Shown here piece after piece: positions 48,518 to 61,528 of a stretch of DNA of 64,000 nt. Made by a program: the position numbers and the translations under genes. Source of the stretch: Gemmatimonadota bacterium (GTDB lineage: Bacteria > Gemmatimonadota > Gemmatimonadetes > Longimicrobiales > Gaopeijiaceae). Where the stretch lies: the NCBI GenBank assembly GCA_034521595.1, contig JAXHMG010000001.1:1-64000 (forward strand), in the 5' to 3' direction. Each line of letters starts with the position of its first letter. Within the stretch, counting starts at the first letter, position 1. The notes below the pieces were generated by a model that worked only from the letters and a program-made list of their open reading frames with translations, did no database searches and was not told where the DNA came from.

Positions 48518-50107
48518 ATGAACGTCTCACGCCTACTGCGCGACCTCGCACGCCCGGACGCCTACCCGCATCCGGCCCCCGACGTCGAGGTACTACAGAC
48601 CCATATCTCCGTCGTCGCATTGGCAGGAGCCTACGCGTACAAGGTGAAGAAGCCGGTCGACCTCGGCTTCCTGGACTTCAGCACGCTCGAGAAGCGCCTC
48701 TACGACTGCCAGGAGGAGGTGCGCTTGAACCGCCGGCTGGCCGGGGACGTCTACCTTGGCGTGGTGCCCCTCGTCGAGTCCGACGAACACCTGACCGTCG
48801 AGGGCTCGGGTACGGCGGTGGAATACGCCGTCAAGATGGAACGCCTCCCGCCGGATGCGACGCTGCTCGAGCACCTCGAGAACGGCACCCTTGAAGCAGA
48901 CACGCTGCGCACGCTCGCCCACCGTATCGCGGCCTTCCACGCGGAGGCCGCCTCGGGGCCAGACATCGCACGTTACGGGGAATGGAGCGTCGTGGCCGGC
49001 AACGCCCGTGAAAACCTGGCTCAGTCGGTCGATCACGTGGGGTCGTACATCAGCCGGCCCGTTCACGAGCGGCTGCGCGGCGTGCTCGAGGAACGACTGG
49101 ACGCGCTGCGACCGCTGATCGAAGAGCGAGCCGAAGCCGGCGTTCCCCGCGACACCCATGGCGACCTCCACCTCGACCACGTCTACCTCTTCCCCGACCG
49201 TTCCGCCCCACGGGATCTCGTCGTCATCGACTGTATCGAGTTCAACGAACGGTTTCGTTACGCGGATCCGGTCGCGGACATGGCGTTCCTGGTCATGGAC
49301 CTGATCGCGCACGGACGGCGTGACCTGGCCGACGCCTTCGAAAACGCCTACTTCGACGCCATCGACGACGCGGAGGGCCGGGCGCTCGTGCCCTTTTACG
49401 TGTCGTATCGCGCCGCCGTACGGGGAAAAGTCGGTGGATTCATGGCCGAGGAGTCGGAAGTCCCGGCCAGCGAGCGCGAGACCGCCGCGGAGCGGGCACG
49501 GTCGCACTGGCTTCTGGCTCTCTCCGAGATCGAAGAACCGCACCGCCGGCCCTGCCTCGTGCTCGTCGGCGGGCTTCCGGGTACAGGGAAATCCACCCTT
49601 TCCGACGCGTTGGTCCGAGAACAGGGCTTTCAGGTGATCCGCTCGGATGAAGTGCGAAAAGAGCTCGCGGGCTTATCCAGTGGGAGTTCGGCCAAGGCCG
49701 CGTTCGGAGAGGGGATCTACACCGCCGAATGGAACGACCGGACCTACGAAGCGTGCCTCTCGAAAGCCCAGGAAGCGCTGTTCCGGGGTGAGCGCGTCAT
49801 CGTGGACGCATCCTTCCGCGAGGAAGGGCGGAGACGAGCATTCTTGGATGCTGCTCGGAACCTCGGCGTTCGGGCACTCTTCCTGAAGTGCACGGCCGAC
49901 CCCACAACGGTGCGTGAGCGCATACAAAGCCGGCGAGACAGCGCTTCGGACGCGGATTGGGCCATCTATCAACAGGCGGCCCAAGCCTGGGAGACCGAGG
50001 CGCCCGACCCCACCGGCGCGCGGACCCGGGTGGTCCAAGCCGACCAAGCGCTCGAGCAGGCGGTACGCACAGCGACGGCACACCTGAGCGAACACGGTCT
50101 CGCCTGA
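48518..50107 (+). CDS. Bifunctional aminoglycoside-phosphotransferase-like / AAA P-loop kinase protein
   Basis: QTHIS, HGDLHLDH, IDCIEFN; GLPGTGKST. Confidence 0.88.
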   Translation: MNVSRLLRDLARPDAYPHPAPDVEVLQTHISVVALAGAYAYKVKKPVDLGFLDFSTLEKRLYDCQEEVRLNRRLAGDVYLGVVPLVESDEHLTVEGSGTAVEYAVKMERLPPDATLLEHLENGTLEADTLRTLAHRIAAFHAEAASGPDIARYGEWSVVAGNARENLAQSVDHVGSYISRPVHERLRGVLEERLDALRPLIEERAEAGVPRDTHGDLHLDHVYLFPDRSAPRDLVVIDCIEFNERFRYADPVADMAFLVMDLIAHGRRDLADAFENAYFDAIDDAEGRALVPFYVSYRAAVRGKVGGFMAEESEVPASERETAAERARSHWLLALSEIEEPHRRPCLVLVGGLPGTGKSTLSDALVREQGFQVIRSDEVRKELAGLSSGSSAKAAFGEGIYTAEWNDRTYEACLSKAQEALFRGERVIVDASFREEGRRRAFLDAARNLGVRALFLKCTADPTTVRERIQSRRDSASDADWAIYQQAAQAWETEAPDPTGARTRVVQADQALEQAVRTATAHLSEHGLA

Positions 50108-50234
50108 AGCCGAGTCGCGGCCAACTCGGCTTCAGATCGCGAGATCCCTCGGACAACAGCCCCGTCGTGGAAGCACGGCCGCGCTCGTCATCCACACCCG
50201 CGATTTCGGCGATGCACCCCGCGGGTGAGCGCCG

Positions 50235-50396
50235 TCAGGTCTTGCTCGACGTCTGCACGAAGGCCTGGAACACGCGGCTCACGTTCTCGCTGCCGCACTC
50301 CGAACACTTTTGTCGAGTCTCGTCGTGCTTGGCCATCGGCTCGTCGATCTCGAATTCGTGTCCGCAATCTTCGCAGCGGTAGTCATACATCGGCAT
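50235..50396 (-). CDS. FmdB-family zinc-ribbon protein (53 aa, not in the ORF track)
   Basis: MPMYDYRCEDCGHEFE..KCSECGSENVSRVF; GGAGG RBS. Confidence 0.85.
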   Translation of the reverse strand: MPMYDYRCEDCGHEFEIDEPMAKHDETRQKCSECGSENVSRVFQAFVQTSSKT

Positions 50397-50569
50397 GGAG
50401 ATTTCCTCCTCCGAGGGGCATCGTTCGGCGAATGGACGAACGAACCACCGTGGGGCCCCGAAGCTGTTCGGCCTCGGGTCGACCCCGCACGACCAATCCG
50501 GCCGCCCCTACACGTGCAACCTACTCAACGGGAATGCTTTACGTAACCGGGGCCGGCACATTCACATGT

Positions 50570-50609
50570 AAAAAAATGCCCTCCGGCTCAATTGAGCCGG
50601 AGGGCATTT
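50570..50609 (-). terminator. Rho-independent terminator closing the tRNA cluster
   Basis: AAATGCCCTCCGGCTCA/TGAGCCGGAGGGCATTT palindrome with a T7 tail on the minus strand. Confidence 0.85.
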
Positions 50610-50619
50610 GAGAACGCTA

Positions 50620-50702
50620 CGGAGCGCGAGGGACTCGAACCCCCAAGCCCTTTCGGGCGCTCGCTTTCGAGGCGAGTGCATTACCAATTCTGCCAGCGCT
50701 CC
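50620..50702 (-). tRNA. tRNA-Ser(CGA)
   Basis: CTCGC-CT-CGA-AA-GCGAG anticodon arm, long variable arm, GGTTCGAGTCC. Confidence 0.92.
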
Positions 50703-50840
50703 AGATGGCCGGATCCCGGAAGCCCCCCTTGGGAACCACGGGAGAATAGCCTTGCCGGCCGATCGGATGATACCAGGTAATGGGGCGCGGGGTCCAGCCA
50801 CGCTTGATCGCCCGGCCTCAGTGATGCGTGAATGTCAGCG

Positions 50841-51539
50841 CCGCTTACGCGGCACACCAATCGGGGCGCCCGGATGGAGCTCCGGTCGCCTCCCGGCGAT
50901 CCTCGCTCGTCTCGGCGAAACCCCCTCAGACCCGCTGGCGCGGAACTGCCCTCTCGGCGCCTCGGCTCGAACCTCCGGTTCTCTTCCGGACGCTTCACTT
51001 CTCCGGCCGCTTACGCGGCACACCAATCGGGGCGCCCGGATGGAGCTCCGGTCGCCTCCCGGCGATCCTCGCTCGTCTCGGCGAAATCCCCTCAGGCCCG
51101 CTGCCGCGGGACTGCCCGCTCGGCGCCTCGGCTCGAACCTCCGGCTCTCTTCCGGACGCTTCACTTCTCCGGCCGCTTACGCGGCATGCCAATCGGGGCG
51201 CCCGGATGGAGCTCCGGTCGCCTCCCGGCGATCCTCGCTCGTCTCGGCGAAATCCCCTCAGGCCCGCTGCCGCGGGACTACCCGCTCGGCGCCTCGGCTC
51301 GAACCTCCGGCTCTCATCCGGACGCTTCACTTCTCTGGCCGCTTACGCGGCACACCAATCGGGGCGCCCGGATGGAGCTCCGGTCGCCTCCCGGCGATCC
51401 TCGCTCGTCTCGGCGAAATCCCCTCAGGCCCGCTGCCGCGGGACTGCCCGCTCGGCGCCTCGGCTCGAACCTCCGGCTCTCATCCGGACGCTTCACTTCT
51501 CCGGCCGCTTACGCGGCACACCAATCGGGGCGCCCGGAT
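50841..51539 (-). repeat. Tandem array of four 166-bp units plus a partial unit downstream of tRNA-Pro(CGG)
   Basis: TCGGGGCGCCCGGAT recurs at 50861, 51027, 51193, 51359 and 51525 (the last is the tRNA 3' end). Confidence 0.95.
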
Positions 51540-51598
51540 TCGAACCGGGGACCTCTGCGACCCGAACGCAGCGCTCTACCGGACTGAGCCACGCCCCG
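51525..51598 (-). tRNA. tRNA-Pro(CGG)
   Basis: CTGCG-TT-CGG-GT-CGCAG; GGTTCGAATCC. Confidence 0.95.
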
Positions 51599-51663
51599 AA
51601 ACCGGTCTTGTGGGCCCAAGGCGCGTCGGCCGCTGGGCCTGCCTCGTTGTTTGTTCCAGCAAC

Positions 51664-51920
51664 TCGACCCACGCTCCCGATCTGCTGCGCAGATCGCCGC
51701 GTGGGTTCGAATTCATACTTTGACGCTCTTTCAAAACGGACGGGGTGGGATGGGCTCCGCTTCGCTCCGCCGCGTCGCGGGACTGCCCGCTCCGGCGCGC
51801 TCCGCGCGATCACCTTCCCTGGCCCGCTCGGCTCGACCCACGCTCCCGATCTGCTGCGCAGATCGCCGCGTGGGTTCGAATTCATACTTTGACGCTCTTT
51901 CAAAACGGACGGGGTGGGAT
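51664..51920 (-). repeat. One 169-bp unit plus a partial unit downstream of tRNA-Ser(GGA)
   Basis: CGGACGGGGTGGGAT at 51737 and 51906; body shared with the tRNA-Ser(GCT) array. Confidence 0.9.
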
Positions 51921-51989
51921 TCGAACCCACGCGGGCGTGAGCCCACACGATTTCCAATCGTGCGCCTTAAGCCACTCGGCCACCCGTCC
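51906..51989 (-). tRNA. tRNA-Ser(GGA)
   Basis: CACGA-TT-GGA-AA-TCGTG; long variable arm; GGTTCGAATCC. Confidence 0.95.
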
Positions 51990-52089
51990 AGCTCGCTCGG
52001 GACGCGTCCACGAGACGTTTTCGCTAGTCGGTGGATCCGTCCAACTGGGGTCTTCGAACCCAGAACCGTTCTCGAACTGTTTTCCAATT

Positions 52090-52575
52090 CAATCAACTTC
52101 TCGTTCTTTCAGCGAGGAGTATGAGGCCGCTTCGTCGCCGGTCGGGAGACTTGGGCGCGCTCCGCCGCCACTGGGCTCAGCCCACGCTCCGCTCTGCTCG
52201 CAGATCGCCGCGTGGGTTGAATCAACCTTCGTCCTTTCAGCGGAGGAGTGGATGGGCTCCGCTTCGCTCCGCCGCGTCGCGGACTGCCGCTCCGCGCGAT
52301 CACCTTCCCTGGCCCGCTCGGCTCGACCCACGCTCCCGATCTGCTGCGCAGATCGCCGCGTGGGTTCGAATTCATACCTTCTCGTCCTTTCAGCGGAGGG
52401 AGTGGGATGGGCTCCGCTTCGCTCCGCCGCGTCGCGGGACTGCCCGCTCCGGCGCGCTCCGCGCGATCACCTTCCCTGGCCCGCTCGGCTCGACCCACGC
52501 TCCCGATCTGCTGCGCAGATCGCCGCGTGGGTTCGAATTCATACCTTCTCGTCCTTTCAGCGGAGGGAGTGGGAT
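52090..52575 (-). repeat. Three progressively degenerate units (167, about 153, about 128 bp) downstream of tRNA-Ser(GCT)
   Basis: tRNA 3'-end copies at 52561, 52394, 52241 and 52113. Confidence 0.88.
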
Positions 52576-52646
52576 TCGAACCCACGCGGACCTTTCGGTC
52601 CAACGCCTTAGCAGGGCGTCGCCTTAAGCCACTCGGCCATCCCTCC
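52561..52646 (-). tRNA. tRNA-Ser(GCT)
   Basis: ACGCC-CT-GCT-AA-GGCGT; long variable arm; GGTTCGAATCC. Confidence 0.95.
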
Positions 52647-52688
52647 AAAGCAAGGGCCGTCCGGCGTGGACGCTCCCTGGCATCTGAG

Positions 52689-52761
52689 TTGCCCCGCTAG
52701 GGATCGAACCTAGACTCTCCGGAACCAGAATCCGGCGTGTTGCCAATTACACCACGGGGCA
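52689..52761 (-). tRNA. tRNA-Gln(CTG)
   Basis: CCGGA-TT-CTG-GT-TCCGG. Confidence 0.93.
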
Positions 52762-52765
52762 GCAG

Positions 52766-52837
52766 AGCCACCTGTCGGATTTGAACCGACGACCCCGTCA
52801 TTACGAATGACGTGCTCTACCACTGAGCTAAGGTGGC
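52766..52837 (-). tRNA. tRNA-Thr(CGT)
   Basis: CGTCA-TT-CGT-AA-TGACG. Confidence 0.93.
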
Positions 52838-52844
52838 GGAAAAG

Positions 52845-52917
<73 letters not shown>

Positions 52918-52934
52918 AACGACACTCGGAATGA

Positions 52935-53008
52935 TGGGCGCGAGAGGACTCGAACCTCTGACCTCTACGATGTCAACGTAGCGCTCTAACCAACTGAGCT
53001 ACGCGCCC
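52935..53008 (-). tRNA. tRNA-Val(GAC)
   Basis: CTACG-TT-GAC-AT-CGTAG. Confidence 0.93.
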
Positions 53009-53037
53009 GGTCGTACGAACCGAGGATGCTGCTGCTA

Positions 53038-53111
<74 letters not shown>

Positions 53112-53127
53112 GCGATCGACGATGGAA

Positions 53128-53211
53128 TGCCCACGACAGGACTCGAACCTGTACGCCGTTTCCGGCACTGGTCCCTCAAACCAGCCTGTCTACCAATTCC
53201 AGCACGTGGGC
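53128..53211 (-). tRNA. tRNA-Leu(GAG)
   Basis: CTGGT-TT-GAG-GG-ACCAG; long variable arm. Confidence 0.93.
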
Positions 53212-53270
53212 AGAAGCCTGCATATCCTTCATAGGCCGACCGGGCCGCCCACCAACGGACGGCCGGTGCA

Positions 53271-53354
53271 TGCTCGAGGAGGGACTCGAACCCTCACGGG
53301 GTTTCCCCCACAGGATCCTGAATCCTGCGCGTCTACCAATTCCGCCACCCGAGC
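53271..53354 (-). tRNA. tRNA-Leu(CAG)
   Basis: CAGGA-TT-CAG-GA-TCCTG; long variable arm. Confidence 0.93.
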
Positions 53355-53389
53355 GCGGGCCGTCCTGAGCCTGCGAGGCCGTCCGACGA

Positions 53390-53462
<73 letters not shown>

Positions 53463-53529
53463 TCACGCATCACCTGGTGAAGCCGTCATTCTCGGTGCAT
53501 CGACGACTTCGCTGTCAAATAACGAGGAG

Positions 53530-53603
53530 CGGGGCTGACGAGACTCGAACTCGCGACCTCCGGTGTGACAGACCGGCACTCTAACCGACTGAGCTACAGC
53601 CCC
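53530..53603 (-). tRNA. tRNA-Asp(GTC)
   Basis: CCGGT-CT-GTC-AC-ACCGG. Confidence 0.93.
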
Positions 53604-53658
53604 TGATTGTGCTACCCACGGTGCTCGGCACCTTCTCCGTACGGCACCGCGACTTCTA

Positions 53659-53730
53659 TGCCCCGACGGGGAATTGAACCCCGATTACCACCTTGAAAGA
53701 GTGGTGTCCTAGCCATTAGACGACCGGGGC
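53659..53730 (-). tRNA. tRNA-Glu(TTC)
   Basis: CCACT-CT-TTC-AA-GGTGG. Confidence 0.93.
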
Positions 53731-53744
53731 GTACCTGGCGTTGA

Positions 53745-53817
53745 CAGGCCCGGAGGGACTCGAACCCCCAACCGCCGGTTTTGGAGACCGGTGCTCTACC
53801 AATTGAGCTACGGACCT
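53745..53817 (-). tRNA. tRNA-Trp(CCA)
   Basis: CCGGT-CT-CCA-AA-ACCGG. Confidence 0.93.
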
Positions 53818-53855
53818 CTAGTCTGTCGTGTCGCCCGGCCCCTGGGTATGGATCA

Positions 53856-53928
53856 TGGCCAGGGACGGAATCGAACCGCCGACACCACGATTTTCAGTCG
53901 TGTGCTCTACCAACTGAGCTACCTGGCC
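53856..53928 (-). tRNA. tRNA-Phe(GAA)
   Basis: CACGA-CT-GAA-AA-TCGTG. Confidence 0.93.
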
Positions 53929-54134
53929 CTCGACATAAAAAACCGCCCGAACCATAGCGGCGCGGACGGGATGCTTCAGGTAAGGCCGGCGACTTACGCG
54001 GCCTGCCCCCCCGCCCGCGCAAGCGGGCTCCACGTATCGGACACCGTCAAGAGCGTAGACTGCTTCGGCAAGACGCGGGTCTCCATCGTCCTAACGTGGC
54101 GAGCGCCGCCCTCCGGACGGCGCTCTTCGAACAA

Positions 54135-54208
<74 letters not shown>

Positions 54209-54388
54209 ACAGGGCTGAGAATCTATACCCTGTCGGCGCAAGCGGTCAACCCACGGCGGTGCGGCCCCCTCCTCGGGCCGTCGCTGACGGCCACCTCCCA
54301 GACTGTGCGGACCGTGTGAGGCGTGGTGTCGGAGGTCCGGAAGAGTGCATGTTTGGAGGGATCTTCCACCGACTTCCACAGGTCACTC

Positions 54389-55627
54389 GTGCTCGACGCA
54401 AACTTCATCGACCCACTGATCGCCCTCGGGCTCGGGCTCCTCGTGGGACTACAGAAGGAACGGACGTCGTCCCCTCTCGCGGGGCTGAAGACGTTCGGCC
54501 TGGCCAGCCTCTTCGGGGCGGTAGCCGCATTGGTCTCGATCGAGGTGGGCGGCTGGATTCTCCCCACCGGCCTGATCGCCGTGGTCGGGGTCATGGCCAT
54601 CGGCAACGCCATTCAGATTCGCGAGCACCGTGCCACGCCCGGACAGACCACGGAGGTCGCGATCCTGGTCATGTACCTGGTAGGCGCGTTGACCGTCGTA
54701 GGCACGACCGCCGTCGCCATCGTCCTCGGGGGAGCCGTCGCCGTCCTCCTGCATCTCCGGGAGGAGCTCCGGGGATTGGTAACCCGGATGAGCGACCGCG
54801 ACGTCCGCGCGATCATGCAGTTCGTGCTCGTTTCCCTCGTCATCCTGCCTGTCCTACCGGACCGGACGTTCGGTCCGTTCGGGGTCCTGAACCCCTACAA
54901 CATCTGGTTGATGGTCGTGCTGATCGTCGGGATCAACCTCGCGGGATACGCAGCCTTCCGATGGCTCAGCAGCCGGAGCGGCACGGCAGTGGCGGGGCTG
55001 CTCGGCGGAGTAGTGTCGAGCACGGCCACAGCCTTCGCATACGCCAGGAACGTCCGCTCGGGCGATCTATCCGCCGGGACCGGGGCAGTGATCATCTGGA
55101 TGGCCTCGAGCATCGTCTACATCCGCATCCTGATCGAGATCGGAGCGGTCGCGCCAAGGTTCCTACCGACCGCTGTGGGCCCGATGCTCGTGATGCTCGG
55201 CATGTTCGCGGCCATCACCGCTCTCACTTGGAACAAGGTGGCGGACGCCGGAGCCAACCCACTCGAGCTCAAGAACCCGACGCACATGAACGCGGCCATC
55301 GTCTTCGCCGCACTCTATGCCGGGGTCCTGCTGGCCGTCGCCGCCGCCGAAAGGTACCTGGGCGACGCCGGACTCTACGCTACGGCCGTGCTCTCCGGAC
55401 TCACGAACATCGACGCCATCACCCTCTCGACTGCACGCCTGGTCGCATCGGAGCGCGTGGACGAATCCGTCGGCTGGAGGCTCATCGTCGCGGCGAGCCT
55501 CTCGAACATGGTGTTCAAGCTGGGGATCGCACGGGTCCTCGGCGGTCGTGCGCTGGGGCGGAAGCTCGGTGGCTTGACCGCCATCGGAGTCGCGGCCGGC
55601 CTTGCCCTCATCCTACTCTGGCGGTGA
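54389..55627 (+). CDS. MgtC/SapB-family membrane protein with DUF4010 domain
   Basis: ALGLGLLVGLQKE..AGLKTF, GQTTE, GGVVSSTATA, SGLTNIDAITLS. Confidence 0.85.
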   Translation: MLDANFIDPLIALGLGLLVGLQKERTSSPLAGLKTFGLASLFGAVAALVSIEVGGWILPTGLIAVVGVMAIGNAIQIREHRATPGQTTEVAILVMYLVGALTVVGTTAVAIVLGGAVAVLLHLREELRGLVTRMSDRDVRAIMQFVLVSLVILPVLPDRTFGPFGVLNPYNIWLMVVLIVGINLAGYAAFRWLSSRSGTAVAGLLGGVVSSTATAFAYARNVRSGDLSAGTGAVIIWMASSIVYIRILIEIGAVAPRFLPTAVGPMLVMLGMFAAITALTWNKVADAGANPLELKNPTHMNAAIVFAALYAGVLLAVAAAERYLGDAGLYATAVLSGLTNIDAITLSTARLVASERVDESVGWRLIVAASLSNMVFKLGIARVLGGRALGRKLGGLTAIGVAAGLALILLWR

Positions 55628-55763
55628 CTCGCGGCGCCCGCCGAGGGCGTGACCAGGCGCGACCCGTTGCGCGCGGTGCGGGGACGAGCCACGCTTTCAG
55701 GGGCCGGGCGGACGAGCCCGAGCCAGACGAGCAACGAGCTGAAGATAGTGGAGGATCCATACC

Positions 55764-56108
55764 ATGACCGACCTCGCCGAACGACATTGTGAAGCGTGCA
55801 AACCCGATTCCCCGACGGTGAGCCCCGAGGAGCGTGAAGAATTTCACGCTCAGGTGCCGGACTGGGACATCGTGGAGATCGGCGGCGTCCCGCAGCTGCA
55901 ACGTGCGTTCACGGTCCCCGACTTCGCGGAAGCCCTGGCCCTGTCCGATGAAGTCGGCGCCTTGGCGGAGGAAGAAGGCCACCATCCGGCCATCCTCACG
56001 GAATACGGGAAGGTCACCGTGCGGTGGTGGACGCACACCATCGGCGGGCTGCACAAGAACGACTTCATCATGGCGGCCAAGACCGACGAGCTCTTCGAGG
56101 ATCTGTAA
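55764..56108 (+). CDS. phhB: Pterin-4-alpha-carbinolamine dehydratase
   Basis: [31 protein letters not shown]. Confidence 0.9.
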
Positions 56109-56170
56109 GCGGACGTCACCGGCCGGGTCCGAAACAGGCAACCCGGAGGCTCCCTACCACCGACATCGGG

Positions 56171-57472
56171 TCAAGATCGCGGACGAAGCTCGCTGACGAC
56201 CTGGATGCCGCGAGCTACTTCGGGGATCACGCCCCTCTGCTCGTAAACCGGTAGCACCTGGGCCCGCAGCGCTCCGATCCGGCGCACGAACCAGGCCGCG
56301 AAGACCAGACAACCCATCCCACCCAAGGCCACGGCCGCCGGTGCTCCGATCCGACTCGCTATCGCTCCGCCCCCCAGGCTCCCGATCGGCATCATCCCCA
56401 TGAACGCCATCGTGTAGAGACTCATCACGCGACCGCGCATCTCCTCGCCGACCAGCGTCTGGACGACCGTGTTGATCGAAGCGGTCGTGAGCATCAGGCC
56501 AAAGCCACCCAGGGCGAGCATCGCACAAGAGAGGAGCAGGCTGCGGGACACCGAAAAGACCAGAAGCGTGGTTCCGAACAGCGCCAGAGCCCCCGCGATG
56601 ACCCGCCCGAGTCCCATCACCGTATCCCTCGAGGCGAGGTAGAGCGCGCCGGCCAGAGCGCCGGCACCCGACGACGCCGTCAGCAACCCGAGGGTGGTCG
56701 CATCCCCGTCGAGGATATCTCGGGCGAAGACGGGGAAGAGCACGACGTAGGGGATCCCCAGAAGCGATACACCCGCCAGCACGACGAGGAGGTCGCGGAT
56801 GGGCGCGAAGCCGAACGCGTAACCGAATCCCTCCCGGATGTTCTGAAGCAGGGCGCCGGCTCGCAGTCCTCGCTCAGCCGGTAGGCGCATCATGGCGAGG
56901 GCACCGAGGATCCCCACGAAGCTGACGGCGTTGAGCACGAAGACCGGCCCCTCGCCCCACCACCCGATGAGGATCCCGCCGAGCGCGGGTCCAATCAGCC
57001 GAGCCGCGTTGAACATCGAGGAGTTGAGGGCGATCGCGTTAGGAAGATCCGCCTGACCCTCCACCAGCTTCACCAGAAGCGCCTGCCGAGCCGGTATATC
57101 AACGCCGTTGATGACGCCCACCACGACCGCCAGCACCACAAGGTGCCAGACCTGCACCAGCCCGCCAATAACGAGCGCCGCCAGAACCACGGCCTGTACC
57201 ATGGCCAAGGTCTGAGCCACGGCGACCATCCGATAGCGGCTCCACCGGTCCGCGAGCGCTCCGGCGAACGGGGCCATCAAGAGCGAGGGGAATTGGCTCG
57301 AAAACCCGATCACCCCGAGCAGGAACGCGGAATCGGTGAGCCGATAAACGAGCCAACTCATCGCGACCTGTTGCATCCAGGTGCCGACGAGCGAGATACC
57401 CTGGCCCACGAAGAACAGCCGCAGATTGCGGTGGCGGAGCGCCCTCAGCGCCAAACGGATACGATTCGACAC
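56171..57472 (-). CDS. MFS transporter
   Basis: ALRHRNLRLFFVGQGISLVGTWMQ, GALADRWSR, MRGRVMSLY. Confidence 0.9.
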   Translation of the reverse strand: MSNRIRLALRALRHRNLRLFFVGQGISLVGTWMQQVAMSWLVYRLTDSAFLLGVIGFSSQFPSLLMAPFAGALADRWSRYRMVAVAQTLAMVQAVVLAALVIGGLVQVWHLVVLAVVVGVINGVDIPARQALLVKLVEGQADLPNAIALNSSMFNAARLIGPALGGILIGWWGEGPVFVLNAVSFVGILGALAMMRLPAERGLRAGALLQNIREGFGYAFGFAPIRDLLVVLAGVSLLGIPYVVLFPVFARDILDGDATTLGLLTASSGAGALAGALYLASRDTVMGLGRVIAGALALFGTTLLVFSVSRSLLLSCAMLALGGFGLMLTTASINTVVQTLVGEEMRGRVMSLYTMAFMGMMPIGSLGGGAIASRIGAPAAVALGGMGCLVFAAWFVRRIGALRAQVLPVYEQRGVIPEVARGIQVVSELRPRS

Positions 57473-57579
57473 GTCCGACGCTAACGGGTCGGGGGATGAG
57501 AAGGGAGTGGAGGGTGTGATGCCCCCTCCCTCTGACGCTCGAGCCCGACGCCGGCGGCACCCGCTCCGTCGCGCGAGCC

Positions 57580-57684
57580 ATGCACCCGGATGAGGACGGG
57601 CGCAAACAGCACGAGGAGATGGGCTTCCTCGAAGGATGGGGCACGTGCCTGGACCAACTCGTCGAAATGGTCAGGCGGTGGTGA
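57580..57684 (+). pseudogene. C-terminal remnant of an SRPBCC/AHSA1-family gene
   Basis: HPDEDGRKQHEEMGFLEGWGTCLDQLVE with no upstream domain. Confidence 0.55.
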
Positions 57685-57740
57685 CATCGGCCGCCCAGGC
57701 GCTTCCCGCCACCGCCCCGAGTCTATAGTTTCACCGTCCA

Positions 57741-57814
57741 CGGGACGTGGCGCAGTCCGGTAGCGCACTGCAATGGGGTTGCAGGGGTCGCCGGTTCGAA
57801 TCCGGCCGTCCCGA
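57741..57814 (+). tRNA. tRNA-Pro(GGG)
   Basis: CTGCA-AT-GGG-GT-TGCAG; GGTTCGAATCC. Confidence 0.95.
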
Positions 57815-58736
57815 TGGAGGCCTCACAACCAGACGGTTGTGAGGCCTCTTTTGTTTTCGGCCTCCATCGGGGCGGCCGGATTCGTGGACTCGCCAACAGG
57901 CGAGGACACGGCGCGACCCACGTCGCGCCAGAACCGTAGGTTCGAGACGAGCGGCCACATCAGTCGCTCCCGACCCACAAGCCCCACCGCGAGTCGAGCG
58001 AAGGGCGGGCGCGCCCCCGGCGCGCTCGACCGTAGCTCCATCCGGCCGTCCCGATGGAGGCCTCACAAGCCGACCGACAGGCTCTTCGCTCTCGGCCTCC
58101 ATCGGGACGGCCGGACGGATCCCTTGGTCGTCGATCGCCGGGAAGCACATGGGCCGACGACAGCTCGCGCTGTCGCGGAACGACCTCATCCGGCCGGCCG
58201 GATTCGTGGACTCGCCGACCGGCGAGGACACGGCGCGACCCACGTCGCGCCAGAACCGTAGGTTCGAGACGAGCGGCCAACAACGGTCGCCTCCCGACCC
58301 GACAAGCTCCACCGCGAGTCGAGCGAAGGGCGGGCGCGCCCCCGGCGCGCTCGACCGTAGCTCAATCCGGCCGTCCCATGGAGGCCTCACAACCAGACGG
58401 TTGTGAGGCCTCTTCTGTTTTCGGCCTCCATCGGGACGGCCGGATGGACTCCCTCTGGTCGTCGATCCGCCGGGGAAGCACATGGGCCGACGACAGCTCG
58501 CGCTGTCGCGGAACGACCTTATCCGGCCGGCCGGATTCGCAGACTCGCCAACAGGCGAGGATGCGTGGGGCGACAACGTCGTCCCACCGAACCGTAGGTT
58601 CGAGACGAGCGGCCAACATCGGTCCCTCTCGACCCGCAAGCCCCACCGCGAGTCGAGCGAAGGGCGGGCGCGCCCCCAGCGCGCTCGACCGTAGCTCCAT
58701 CCGGCCGTCCCGATCGAGGCCTCACAACCAGACGGT
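57800..58736 (+). repeat. Three units (240, 325, 334 bp) plus a partial unit downstream of tRNA-Pro(GGG)
   Basis: ATCCGGCCGTCCC(G)A at 57800, 58040, 58365 and 58699. Confidence 0.92.
57817..57857 (+). terminator. Rho-independent terminator after tRNA-Pro(GGG), duplicated in the repeat units
   Basis: 14-bp stem GAGGCCTCACAACC/GGTTGTGAGGCCTC followed by TTTTGTTTT. Confidence 0.75.
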
Positions 58737-58807
58737 CGACGCACACCCGTCCGCACGATAGCGTGTGAAGAAGCACCGACTTTTCCCCACCACACCGCGA
58801 GCCGACC

Positions 58808-61528
58808 CTGACTCTCCGCGACGTCTCCTTCCCGCCGAAAGACGAACCCCTCCGCCGTGATGTCGGCTTGCTCGGAGACATCGTGGGAAGGGTGATCCGG
58901 GAACAGGGAGGAGAGGAGCTCTTCCGGCGCGTCGAGCGCGCACGGCATGCCGCCATCCGCCGACGTGAGGGGGCGTCCGACGCAACGCACGAGGTCGAGC
59001 AGGCCCTGGCGGGGCTCGACGCCGAGCAAGCGGAGGAAGTCGTGCGTGCGTACTCCATGTACTTTCAGGTCGTGAACCTAGCCGAGCGGGTGCACCGGAT
59101 TCGCAGGGGCCGGGCCTGGATGCGGGAAGGAGAGGAGCCGCAACCGGGATCGCTCGCGGACACCGTGGAGCGGCTCCGCAAACGCGGCCTCGATCAGGAG
59201 CGGATGCGGTCGCTCTTCTCCTCCGCACGGGTCGAGCCGGTCTTCACCGCCCACCCCACCGAGTCCACGCGCCGGATCATCCTGGAGAAGCAGGACCGGA
59301 TCGCGGCCGAGCTGATCGGTCGGCTCAACCCCGAGCGCACGCCACGCGAGGAAGCGGTCGCGACCGCGACCATCCGTGAGAACGTCACGGCCGCATGGCA
59401 GACGGAGGAGCATCCATCGGCTCGACCCACGGTGGCCGACGAGCGGGAGCATGTCCTCTACTACGTGACGCGCACCCTTTACCGAGTCCTCCCCGCGCTG
59501 CACGAGACGCTGGACGAGGCGCTCGAGCACCCGGAGCAGACCTCGACCGGCGACCTTCCGCCCCTCATTCGGCCGGGATCCTGGGTCGGGGGCGATATGG
59601 ACGGAAACCCGAACGTCGATGCGAACACGGTCCGCGAGACGCTCCGCCGCCACCGGGACCTGACGCTGGAGGCGTACGAGCGAGAGGTCGGCGAGCTCGC
59701 CCGGAACCTGACGCAGTCGGCGTCGCGCGTGTCATGGAATCGGGAGATCTCCGTGCTCGGGGATCGCTACGGTGGATGGTTTCCGGAGACCGACCGCGCC
59801 ATCCCCGAGCGTCATCGCAGCATGGGCTACAGGGTTCTCCTGGAGCTCATCGGGGCACGCCTCGCCGCGACCCGTGCCGACTCCGAGCACGGGTACGCCG
59901 GCCCCGAGGAGCTGCTCGACGACATCAACGCGATCGCCAAGAGCCTCGTAGAGCACGACGGTACGCATGCCGGACTCTTCGGTGTCCGCCGACTGTTGCG
60001 GCGCATCCGGACGTTCGGTTTCCACATGGCCGCCCTGGACGTGCGTCAGGACGCCCGCGCCTTGCGTGAGGTCGCCGCGGAGCTCTTCGACGACCCGGCA
60101 TGGCCCGAACGCCCCTCCGAGGAACGGATCGAGCGGCTCCACGAAGCGCTCTCGAGCATGGAGCAGGGAGACGCGCGGACAGGGCGGGAAGGACTCAGCG
60201 ATGCGGCGCTCGACACGCTCGACGTCTTTCGGGCGATCTCTGAAGGACGCGGGGCGTACGGGGCGGATGCGATCGGTTCCTACATCATCTCGATGGCGGA
60301 GGATGTCGACGACGTGCTCACGGTCGCCTGGCTGGCCACGCTCGGAGGCCTCGGTACCACCGACGACCTGCCCCTCGACATCGCTCCGCTCTTCGAAACC
60401 GTCTCCGACCTCGAGCGTGCGGAAGAGGTCCTCGAAGCGCTGTTCACGGACCCCTTCCTGGGGCCACACGTATCTCGGCGCGGAAGCCGCCAGATCGTGA
60501 TGGTCGGGTACTCCGACTCCAACAAGGACGGAGGCATCGCCTCGGCACGGTGGGCTCTGCAGCGAGCCCTCGAGGGCATGGCCCGAGCGGCCACCCGACA
60601 GGACGTAACACTCACGGTGTTCCATGGACGCGGGGGTACGGTTTCTCGGGGGGGCGGCTCCGTGCACCGGGCCGTCGCGGCCATGCCGGCCGGATCGATC
60701 GGAGGTCGGCTGCGCCTGACCGAGCAGGGCGAAGTCATCGACGCGAAATACGGCCTGCCCCAGATCGCGCTCCGTAATCTGGAGCGGATGCTCGGGTCCA
60801 TCGTGCTTCGCGCGGCGGACCGCGGCGAGGACGAGGCTCCGCCACGGTGGCGGAGCCTCGCGGACACGGTGGCCGGGGCGGCACGCACCGCCTATCGGTC
60901 GCTCGTTTACGAAGACCCGCGTTTCACCGCGTACTTCCGTTCCGGAACCCCCATCGACGTGATCGAGCGAATGTCCATCGGGTCACGCCCACCGTCCCGG
61001 CGGTCGGGCGCGGGTGTCGAGGACCTCCGCGCGATCCCCTGGGTGTTCTCGTGGACCCAATGCCGGGCGATGATGACGGGCTGGTACGGGCTGGGAACCG
61101 GGTTGGAAGCGGCCCGGGCCGAGCACGGCCTCGGCCTCCTGCAGGAAGCCGCCGAGGGCTGGCCCTTCTTCGACACCCTCCTGGCCGATGTCGAGATGGT
61201 GCTGGCCAAGGCCGACCTCGAGATCGCCGGGATGTACCGGGCCTTGGCCCCGGCCCAAGCCCACGCGGTCTACGACCGGATCCGCGACGAGTTCGATCGG
61301 ACGGTCTCAGCGGTGCTCGAAATCCGGCAAAGCTCCGCCCTCCTCGATGACGATCCCACGCTTCAGCGTTCGATCCGCTTGCGAAACCCCTACGTCGACC
61401 CGATGAACATGCTCCAAGTCGACCTACTGCGCCGGTGGCGGCACGACGAGCGGCCGGACGGCGCTCTCCTCGACGCCCTGCTCGCGACGGTGAACGGGAT
61501 CGCACGGGGGCTGCAGAACACGGGGTGA
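58808..61528 (+). CDS. ppc: Phosphoenolpyruvate carboxylase
   Basis: VFTAHPTE, SWVGGDMDGNP, MVGYSDSNKDGG, FHGRGGTVSRGGG, LRAIPWVFSW, C-terminal LQNTG; start uncertain (CTG 58808 or TTG 58868). Confidence 0.95.
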   Translation: MTLRDVSFPPKDEPLRRDVGLLGDIVGRVIREQGGEELFRRVERARHAAIRRREGASDATHEVEQALAGLDAEQAEEVVRAYSMYFQVVNLAERVHRIRRGRAWMREGEEPQPGSLADTVERLRKRGLDQERMRSLFSSARVEPVFTAHPTESTRRIILEKQDRIAAELIGRLNPERTPREEAVATATIRENVTAAWQTEEHPSARPTVADEREHVLYYVTRTLYRVLPALHETLDEALEHPEQTSTGDLPPLIRPGSWVGGDMDGNPNVDANTVRETLRRHRDLTLEAYEREVGELARNLTQSASRVSWNREISVLGDRYGGWFPETDRAIPERHRSMGYRVLLELIGARLAATRADSEHGYAGPEELLDDINAIAKSLVEHDGTHAGLFGVRRLLRRIRTFGFHMAALDVRQDARALREVAAELFDDPAWPERPSEERIERLHEALSSMEQGDARTGREGLSDAALDTLDVFRAISEGRGAYGADAIGSYIISMAEDVDDVLTVAWLATLGGLGTTDDLPLDIAPLFETVSDLERAEEVLEALFTDPFLGPHVSRRGSRQIVMVGYSDSNKDGGIASARWALQRALEGMARAATRQDVTLTVFHGRGGTVSRGGGSVHRAVAAMPAGSIGGRLRLTEQGEVIDAKYGLPQIALRNLERMLGSIVLRAADRGEDEAPPRWRSLADTVAGAARTAYRSLVYEDPRFTAYFRSGTPIDVIERMSIGSRPPSRRSGAGVEDLRAIPWVFSWTQCRAMMTGWYGLGTGLEAARAEHGLGLLQEAAEGWPFFDTLLADVEMVLAKADLEIAGMYRALAPAQAHAVYDRIRDEFDRTVSAVLEIRQSSALLDDDPTLQRSIRLRNPYVDPMNMLQVDLLRRWRHDERPDGALLDALLATVNGIARGLQNTG

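Follow-up and report, generated by a model that had tools for sequence, protein, structure and literature searches.

We have studied a set of short tandem repeat arrays that lie directly behind transfer RNA (tRNA) genes in a Gemmatimonadota bacterium, using as our window the first 64,000 nucleotides (nt) of contig JAXHMG010000001.1 (assembly GCA_034521595.1). The arrays are associated with a single T-loop context, GGTTCGAATCC, and their units contain a discrete module of 81-95 nt that is placed exactly between T-loop positions 58 and 59, with TTCGA (54-58) on its left and ATCC (59-62) on its right, always in the sense orientation of the tRNA. The reading that we favor, although we put its chances at about even, is that the module inserts strand-specifically into the T-loop and survives in spare T-arms, and that the arrays correspond in Gemmatimonadota to the tRNA-linked repeats (TLRs) of Escherichia coli. 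The genome, which we call G000, comprises three contigs (3.49 Mb, G+C 67-69%). G001, G003 and G005 are its congeners, and L followed by a number denotes a locus in the comparison set.

The window contains 18 tRNA genes identified by ARAGORN, namely a minus-strand cluster of 17 (50619-54209) and a single plus-strand gene (57741-57814). Five have the GGTTCGAATCC context (Pro-CGG, Ser-GGA, Ser-GCT, the initiator-like Met-CAT and Pro-GGG). Arrays are present at four of these five, and at none of the remaining 13 (Fisher exact p = 0.0016); both contexts and counts agree with a sequence-only reading of this DNA. No second downstream copy of the tRNA tail was found for any of the 13 window tRNAs with other T-loops, the single downstream match for Ala-GGC being the neighboring tRNA-Ala gene and not an array. 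Genome-wide, ARAGORN made 49 calls, of which three without a recognizable T-loop look spurious and were dropped. Among the 46 counted, arrays occur at 8/13 tRNAs with GGTTCGAATCC and 0/33 with other T-loops (Fisher p = 4.9e-6, a value that, like that for the window, overstates independence, since tRNAs sharing a T-arm are related). The array loci outside the window are Cys-GCA, Pro-TGG, Ser-TGA and Arg-CCG.

When the conserved part of the repeat was searched for with an nhmmer profile, all significant copies in G000 lay at the eight tRNA loci and at the gene for transfer-messenger RNA (tmRNA). The tmRNA, on contig C3, has the T-loop TTCGACT, and a single degenerate module comes behind it (nhmmer E 1.8e-4; 54.8 bits with R1, our model of the Gemmatimonadota modules). 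Genes for tmRNA with this T-loop are followed by modules in five genomes, with two in G003 (L140) and one each at L029, L077, L115 and in G000.

Does the association extend to related bacteria? Related genomes show enrichment of a 14-nt core motif. A two-block pattern that forces TTCGA on the left, but leaves the right side and parent positions 59-60 free, was searched for in contigs of one genome per species. This returned 99 stretches, whose titles name Gemmatimonadota, Longimicrobiales or Gemmatimonadales in nearly every case, with single contigs labeled Acidimicrobiales, Planctomycetota and Solirubrobacterales; the loci hold 135 modules. For 57 modules the parent tRNA lies in the same locus, and its T-loop is GGTTCGAATCC in 54, CGTTCGAATCG in one, TTCAAAT in one and apparently GGTTCGAGTCC in one, this last being a mis-assignment on re-examination. 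The parents in relatives are Pro, Ser, Arg-CCG and Cys tRNAs, with a single Lys-CTT and a single Gly-CCC. Modules are present in all seven genomes of the genus. G003 has 16, of which 10 lie right behind GGTTCGAATCC tRNAs, two upstream of tRNA-Pro-GGG and two behind the tmRNA gene; the other two (L141 700-790 and L142 640-710) have no tRNA or tmRNA within ~700 nt.

The sequence-only reading had proposed that arrays occur only at tRNAs with this T-loop, through sequence-specific targeting of a palindromic TTCGAA loop. Tabulation of T-loop against repeat in G000 and its relatives preserves the association (8/13 against 0/33, and 54/57 parents), and for the tRNAs of G000 the word "only" is accurate. 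It does not extend to the tmRNA, nor to the one TTCAAAT tRNA. The link to one T-loop stands, while with these exceptions and the five empty sites among 13 the palindrome is no more than a possible determinant, and the searches described below found no enzyme that might do the targeting.

Read along the tRNA strand, a unit comprises the tail, the tRNA's own trailer, a partial inverted copy of the T-arm, a T-stem-like stretch ending GGTTCGA, and the module, after which the next tail begins. As its tail, every unit repeats the tRNA exactly from A59 to the 3'-terminal base (ATCC and a further 11 nt), and the trailer is often a terminator-like hairpin. In Pro-type units the loop of the inverted T-arm is ATGAGA(A/G) in place of ATTCGAA. 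The module starts GCCGAG, or GACGAG in the Pro-GGG array, and in most units ends CCG(C/G/T)AGCTC(C/A), the shorter variant of Ser-GGA and Ser-GCT ending GGAGCCC; the module of array 1 (module B) runs from GCCGAG to GGAGCTCC. Both junctions are recognizable in 123/164 modules from all loci, whose lengths concentrate at 80-90 nt, and among the relatives ATCC follows the module immediately in 90 of ~112 readable cases. A long "guide" complementary to the tail was also considered. At least 10/12 matches at the expected distance were present in only ~6/100 distinct units, and palindromic Pro tails inflate the remaining matches, so the guide was dropped as a general feature.

The module is also found without an array. 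Its removal in silico restores a complete tRNA in 10/123 cases (9 distinct sites). At L031 (3994-5900), on a Longimicrobiales chromosome, ~18 unusual tRNA genes lie 2-6 nt apart, and three well-formed tRNAs carry a module in the T-loop, with no duplicated flank and the next gene starting a few bases past the tail. These three are among seven TTCGAAT tRNAs, and none of 10 others has a module (p 0.05). The open reading frame adjoining the L031 array encodes an IS481-type transposase, a common insertion sequence. At L066 (7345-7800, minus strand) and L007 (380-700), module-bearing full-length tRNA copies with damaged acceptor stems stand upstream of an intact copy, so that the direction of the repeat is reversed, and at L015 two modules abut directly, head to tail.

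Plain slippage cannot yield the modules, because they are present in complete tRNA bodies without any duplication. The dismissal of random slippage in the sequence-only reading is upheld by these cases, together with the fixed A58/A59 site, as far as the origin of the modules is concerned; in array length slippage may well play a part, as discussed below. A more elaborate version invokes replication template switching at a quasi-palindrome. The TTCGAAT T-arm is a 17-nt near-perfect palindrome, and strand switching and slippage there would yield partial T-arm copies, both inverted and direct, with the module amplified alongside them as a passenger. It is true that only T-arms containing TTCGAA are near-palindromic as duplex DNA, that the units contain inverted T-arm copies (one of which forms a perfect 16-nt palindrome in G015), and that array length varies. 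Yet template switching cannot create, across many genomes, a fixed-ended 85-nt module that is conserved and covaries, nor put the module alone within tRNA bodies, and the tmRNA loops (TTCGACT) bear modules while being non-palindromic. We consider this explanation very improbable.

The same insertions raise the question of whether the module might be a T-loop intron, removed from the transcript so that the tRNA genes bearing it are functional. The acceptor and T stems around the module are intact in the three L031 tRNAs, and both junctions adjoin helices of the module (P1 and P4, described below). However, the parent tRNAs in G000 are all uninterrupted and the modules there occur only in truncated copies, acceptor stems are broken in several of the module-bearing full-length copies (L066, L007), and an Rfam scan of 50000-59500 gave no match to a ribozyme or intron family. 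Group I introns, moreover, are far larger than ~85 nt. An intron seems to us extremely unlikely.

What is conserved in the module? An alignment of 106 distinct modules was folded using RNAalifold. P1 is a closing helix (CGAG-NNN ... NNN-CGAG), with possible tandem G.A pairs and at least three covarying variants; P2 is a variable hairpin and P3 a 3' hairpin. P4 is a GAGC/GCTC helix formed around P3, ending one base before the right junction, with GACC/GGTC compensation in several sequences. The fraction of pairing cells is 93.7%, compared with 79.2% in shuffled alignments, and there are 136 double changes compared with 40.7; all slid controls are far lower. The excess of paired cells and double changes over both types of control argues that the module is selected to fold as a single strand, either RNA or DNA. 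Single-sequence folds of one unit on both strands gave z ~ -2, which is uninformative, and an Rfam scan of 50000-59500 with E up to 1 returned only tRNA and chance matches, with no ribozyme, intron or RtT.

A conserved fold would also suit a resident functional small RNA, that is, RtT-like host genes co-transcribed with the tRNA and released by RNase P, RNase E or 3' trimming, the tail and inverted T-arm pairing into a mimic of a tRNA acceptor/T minihelix. The arrays would then change only by local duplication, and the link to the T-loop would reflect a structural or processing need and not targeting. This would agree with the fixed sense orientation behind tRNA genes, with sequence blocks conserved across the phylum and covarying helices, with the Rfam RtT consensus, in which the inverted copy pairs with the tail, and with the failure to find a mobilizing enzyme. 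In E. coli, moreover, the TLRs linked to 5S rRNA are transcribed, processed and bound by Hfq and CsrA, according to PMC8144298. The proposal leaves unaccounted for, however, the tails matching each local tRNA at eight or more loci, the modules lodged in complete tRNA bodies that they inactivate, the difference in presence between congeners, and the many degenerate units. We judge it unlikely. Public RNA-run contigs, taken as assembled contigs only, covered mostly tRNA genes, mainly of other organisms.

The history of the arrays can be followed at tRNA-Pro-CGG, where G001 has no unit, G003 has two, G005 has two and a partial unit, and G000 has four. All four genomes share at this gene the native trailer hairpin, which lies within every unit, and a conserved block downstream. 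The conclusion that emerges is that units arise in place at the locus, and are not imported whole. Modules of the same array are 88-93% identical, whereas those of different loci are ~60% identical whatever the tRNA type. Since congeners differ in copy number, and the Ser-GCT array of one metagenome contig is 277 nt shorter, it is likely that arrays also grow and shrink by unequal recombination or slippage.

These observations bear on a further explanation, in which each unit of 166-330 nt would be a minimal integrative element, an attP-only circle served in trans by a tyrosine integrase, restoring the gene on entry and forming tandem arrays by repeated integration. Direct copies of the tRNA 3' end do bound the units, much as attL and attR would, and next to some modules lie incomplete tRNA-Arg copies, which begin in the anticodon loop. 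Genes for tRNA and tmRNA are, as Williams is said to have described in 2002, classic integration sites. But the units include the locus's own trailer, the module-only insertions of L031 share no core on their two sides, and none of the G000 arrays has an integrase beside it (see below). Such elements are therefore most doubtful in our view.

A mobilizing enzyme was sought in the genomes and loci. Phage_integrase has four matches in G000, none at an array, and an integrase-like open reading frame was present in only 1/99 loci (phmmer with four queries, of limited sensitivity). Among five module-bearing genomes, neither Y1_Tnp (PF01797) nor RVT_1 had a match (0/5 each). Y2_Tnp and IS110 occur patchily, and G003, with its 16 modules, has neither. 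There is thus no consistent candidate for a transposase, integrase or reverse transcriptase in the genomes and loci searched.

In the reading that we favor, the module would insert strand-specifically into the T-loop at GGTTCGA|ATCC, between positions 58 and 59, perhaps by way of a single-stranded intermediate, DNA or RNA. Insertion into a working tRNA gene would destroy it, and because of this the module would persist only in spare T-arms, provided by a tail and trailer duplicated behind an intact gene, by a superfluous copy of a tRNA or by part of one. Every unit has the local trailer because the initial unit is made in place, and later units would be gained and lost by unequal recombination. 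The arrays would probably be co-transcribed with the tRNA, and may be processed in the manner of RtT.

Several results weigh against this reading. The failed search for an enzyme, as just described, is one. Five of the 13 GGTTCGAATCC tRNAs in G000 have no array (including Met-CAT, Gln-TTG, Tyr-GTA and Leu-CAA), and conversely the tmRNA and one TTCAAAT tRNA bear modules despite their other T-loops. Simple insertion does not account for the inverted T-arm copy, whose loop is ATGAGAA in both Pro-type and E. coli tyrT units. Clustering of modules by genome or tRNA type gave no signal beyond array mates (~60% either way), so the data give no direct indication that modules have lately jumped from one locus to another. 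Finally, E. coli TLRs are also found behind 5S rRNA genes, which have no T-loop (PMC8144298).

The coordinates of the arrays, their parent genes and the control genes are collected in Table 1.

Table 1. Arrays, parent tRNA genes and control genes of the window, with the tmRNA-linked module of contig C3
Feature	Position	Strand	Basis or comment
tRNA-Pro(CGG), T-loop GGTTCGAATCC, parent of array 1	51524..51599	-	ARAGORN
Array 1, four 166-nt units, 96-97% alike	50839..51539	-	Tandem Repeats Finder and repeat finder
Array 1 units	51374-51539, 51208-51373, 51042-51207, 50876-51041	-	final tail and trailer hairpin copy 50839-50875
Array 1 modules (module B, 91 nt)	51374-51464, 51208-51298, 51042-51132, 50876-50966	-	model R1, 94-98 bits
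tRNA-Ser(GGA), T-loop GGTTCGAATCC, parent of array 2	51905..51990	-	ARAGORN
Array 2, one full unit (51752-51920), shorter variant module (51752-51832)	51663..51920	-	model R1, 23.9 bits
tRNA-Ser(GCT), T-loop GGTTCGAATCC, parent of array 3	52560..52646	-	ARAGORN
Array 3, full unit at 52409-52575 with its module at 52409-52489, then two degenerate units to ~52040	52040..52575	-	
tRNA-Pro(GGG), T-loop GGTTCGAATCC, parent of array 4	57741..57814	+	ARAGORN
Array 4, units 57800-58039, 58040-58364, 58365-58698 (240, 325, 334 nt), final tail from 58699	57800..58736	+	
Array 4 modules	57946-58039, 58268-58364, 58604-58698	+	model R1, 57-59 bits
tRNA-Met(CAT), initiator-like, T-loop GGTTCGAATCC, empty site	54134..54209	-	no array
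Twelve tRNA genes with other T-loops, no arrays	52688..53928	-	controls
tRNA-Ser(CGA), thirteenth control	50619-50703	-	
tmRNA gene region with degenerate module	G000 C3 1413827-1414394 (L003 1250-1750)	-	tail matches tmRNA 3' end

The partial second unit of array 2 (51663-51751) comprises the tail and left arm, and stops at GGGTCGAG. The units of arrays 2 and 3, behind Ser-GGA and Ser-GCT, are 96% identical outside the tail and trailer, which points to recent copying or conversion between these neighboring arrays. Array 4 reaches ~58736, past the end coordinate assigned by the sequence-only reading, and every one of its units includes the terminator hairpin of the tRNA and an inverted tail copy. 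Units 2 and 3 of this array (58056-58190 and 58380-58520) have ~100 nt that unit 1 lacks, with a shortened second copy of ATCCGGCCGGCC and an inverted tail.

Contig C1 (117.6 kb) carries 18 of the ~46 credible tRNA genes, 17 of them packed into the 3.6-kb minus-strand cluster. A metatranscriptome contig of another organism, compared with window positions 51600-52560, has the same gene order (Ser-GCT, Ser-GGA, Pro-CGG) with spacers of 36 and 65 nt and no arrays. On C3 of G000 the tRNA-Ser(TGA) gene, with its own array, comes after the tmRNA module. Exact 14-nt copies of the tail of tRNA-Leu(CAA), which has no array, lie far away at C2:224635 and C3:2872692, and may be att-like remnants of larger elements. 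At C3:1489787-1490239 a short Phage_integrase match (a 188-aa open frame) adjoins tRNA-Leu(TAA), which has the T-loop TTCGATT; the match looks like a truncated integrase.

The results show that arrays of this kind occur in a distant phylum as well, where covariation supports a conserved module, and tie the arrays to one T-loop sequence in both Gemmatimonadota and E. coli. They also define the module as a discrete insert at 58/59 that can sit alone inside tRNA genes. This raises the question of what recognizes or cuts the T-loop, and whether it does so as DNA or RNA. As a practical matter, the arrays break assemblies and can pass for integration scars.

How do the arrays compare with known systems? 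Like the islands and prophages that tyrosine integrases place in tRNA and tmRNA genes, they have direct repeats of the tRNA 3' end bounding their units, occupy the same sites and accrete in tandem. In contrast to these islands, the units are only 166-334 nt long and gene-less, with no integrase nearby. Moreover, while tail repeats that could serve as a shared core bound whole units, there are none on the two sides of the module-only insertions at L031. tRNA introns, either group I or of the bulge-helix-bulge kind, differ in that all eight parent tRNAs in G000 are uninterrupted and no intron family is matched in the Rfam scan.

Elements of the IS200/IS605 family and their miniature derivatives (PATE, REP/RAYT-like) insert 3' of a fixed short sequence, in one orientation and without target duplication, and have subterminal hairpins; in all these respects the module is similar. 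In IS608 a guide sequence pairs with the cleavage site, and P4, a short helix beside the 3' junction, resembles that pairing. The differences are that the five module-bearing genomes have no Y1 HUH transposase, that the two ends of the module share no hairpin, and that P1 connects the left end of the module with its middle.

The closest resemblance is to the TLRs of E. coli. They go back in the literature to 1978 (Egan and Landy 1978; Rudd 1999; both as cited in PMC8144298). As set out in that article, there are 22 in ten loci, each closed by 18-19 bp repeated from the tRNA or rRNA gene upstream of it; their origin is there left unexplained, and no function is given except for three members, the 5S-linked RrA/B/F RNAs. 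A preprint (10.1101/2024.07.17.603846), offered as a lead only, has coverage of the tyrT-rttR region raised after exonuclease treatment under stress. Our literature search found no such arrays for Gemmatimonadota and no account of T-loop specificity for TLRs, although Rudd 1999, Egan and Landy 1978, and Bosl and Kersten 1991 may already hold the latter. When we examined E. coli K-12 ourselves, RtT matches (Rfam) lay behind 12 of its 86 tRNA genes, all with GTTCGAATC (12/33 against 0/53; p = 2.3e-6).

The differences between the two are in sequence and context. The Rfam RtT model (RF00391) has no match at our arrays with E up to 1, and its best score in G000 is 20.5 bits, elsewhere in the genome, against a gathering score of 45 bits. 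In the reverse direction, model R1 aligns in register with three tyrT/tyrV units at 10-11.4 bits (E 0.14-0.3, within noise), and with none in a search of the whole E. coli genome. The core in Gemmatimonadota includes one variable hairpin more than that of TLRs and ends differently on the 3' side (CCGCAGCTCC); CCA is not encoded. TLRs also differ in following 5S rRNA genes (PMC8144298).

Nevertheless, the architecture is shared. Both consist of tandem units in the same orientation right behind tRNA genes, with one to four units at each of eight loci in G000 compared with one to five in the definition of TLRs, and both carry a copy of the tRNA 3' end, which spans 18-19 bp in TLRs and in G000 an exactly repeated 15 nt, from A59 to the discriminator base (CCA not being encoded), often together with the trailer. 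The 178-bp units of tyrT/tyrV end with the tail of tRNA-Tyr from A58/A59, and the T-loop is again GGTTCGAATCC. The internal order of the tyrT unit is also that of the Gemmatimonadota unit, namely trailer, inverted T-arm with the loop AUGAGAA, AGGUUCGA, a CGAGCG-rich core, a GC hairpin and tail; as in Gemmatimonadota, the CGAGCG-rich core comes after AAGGTTCGA. A 13-base motif taken from the Gemmatimonadota junction, GGTTCGANNCGAGCG, has three exact matches in the E. coli genome, and all three are in TLRs. We therefore class the Gemmatimonadota arrays and the TLRs as one kind of repeat; homology between them is plausible. A bolder proposal, which we hold tentatively and consider improbable on present evidence, is that TLRs from E. 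coli to Gemmatimonadota are traces of one ancient class of protein-less mobile element, which would insert at 58/59 of single-stranded TTCGAAT T-arms using either a host enzyme or catalysis by the module itself.

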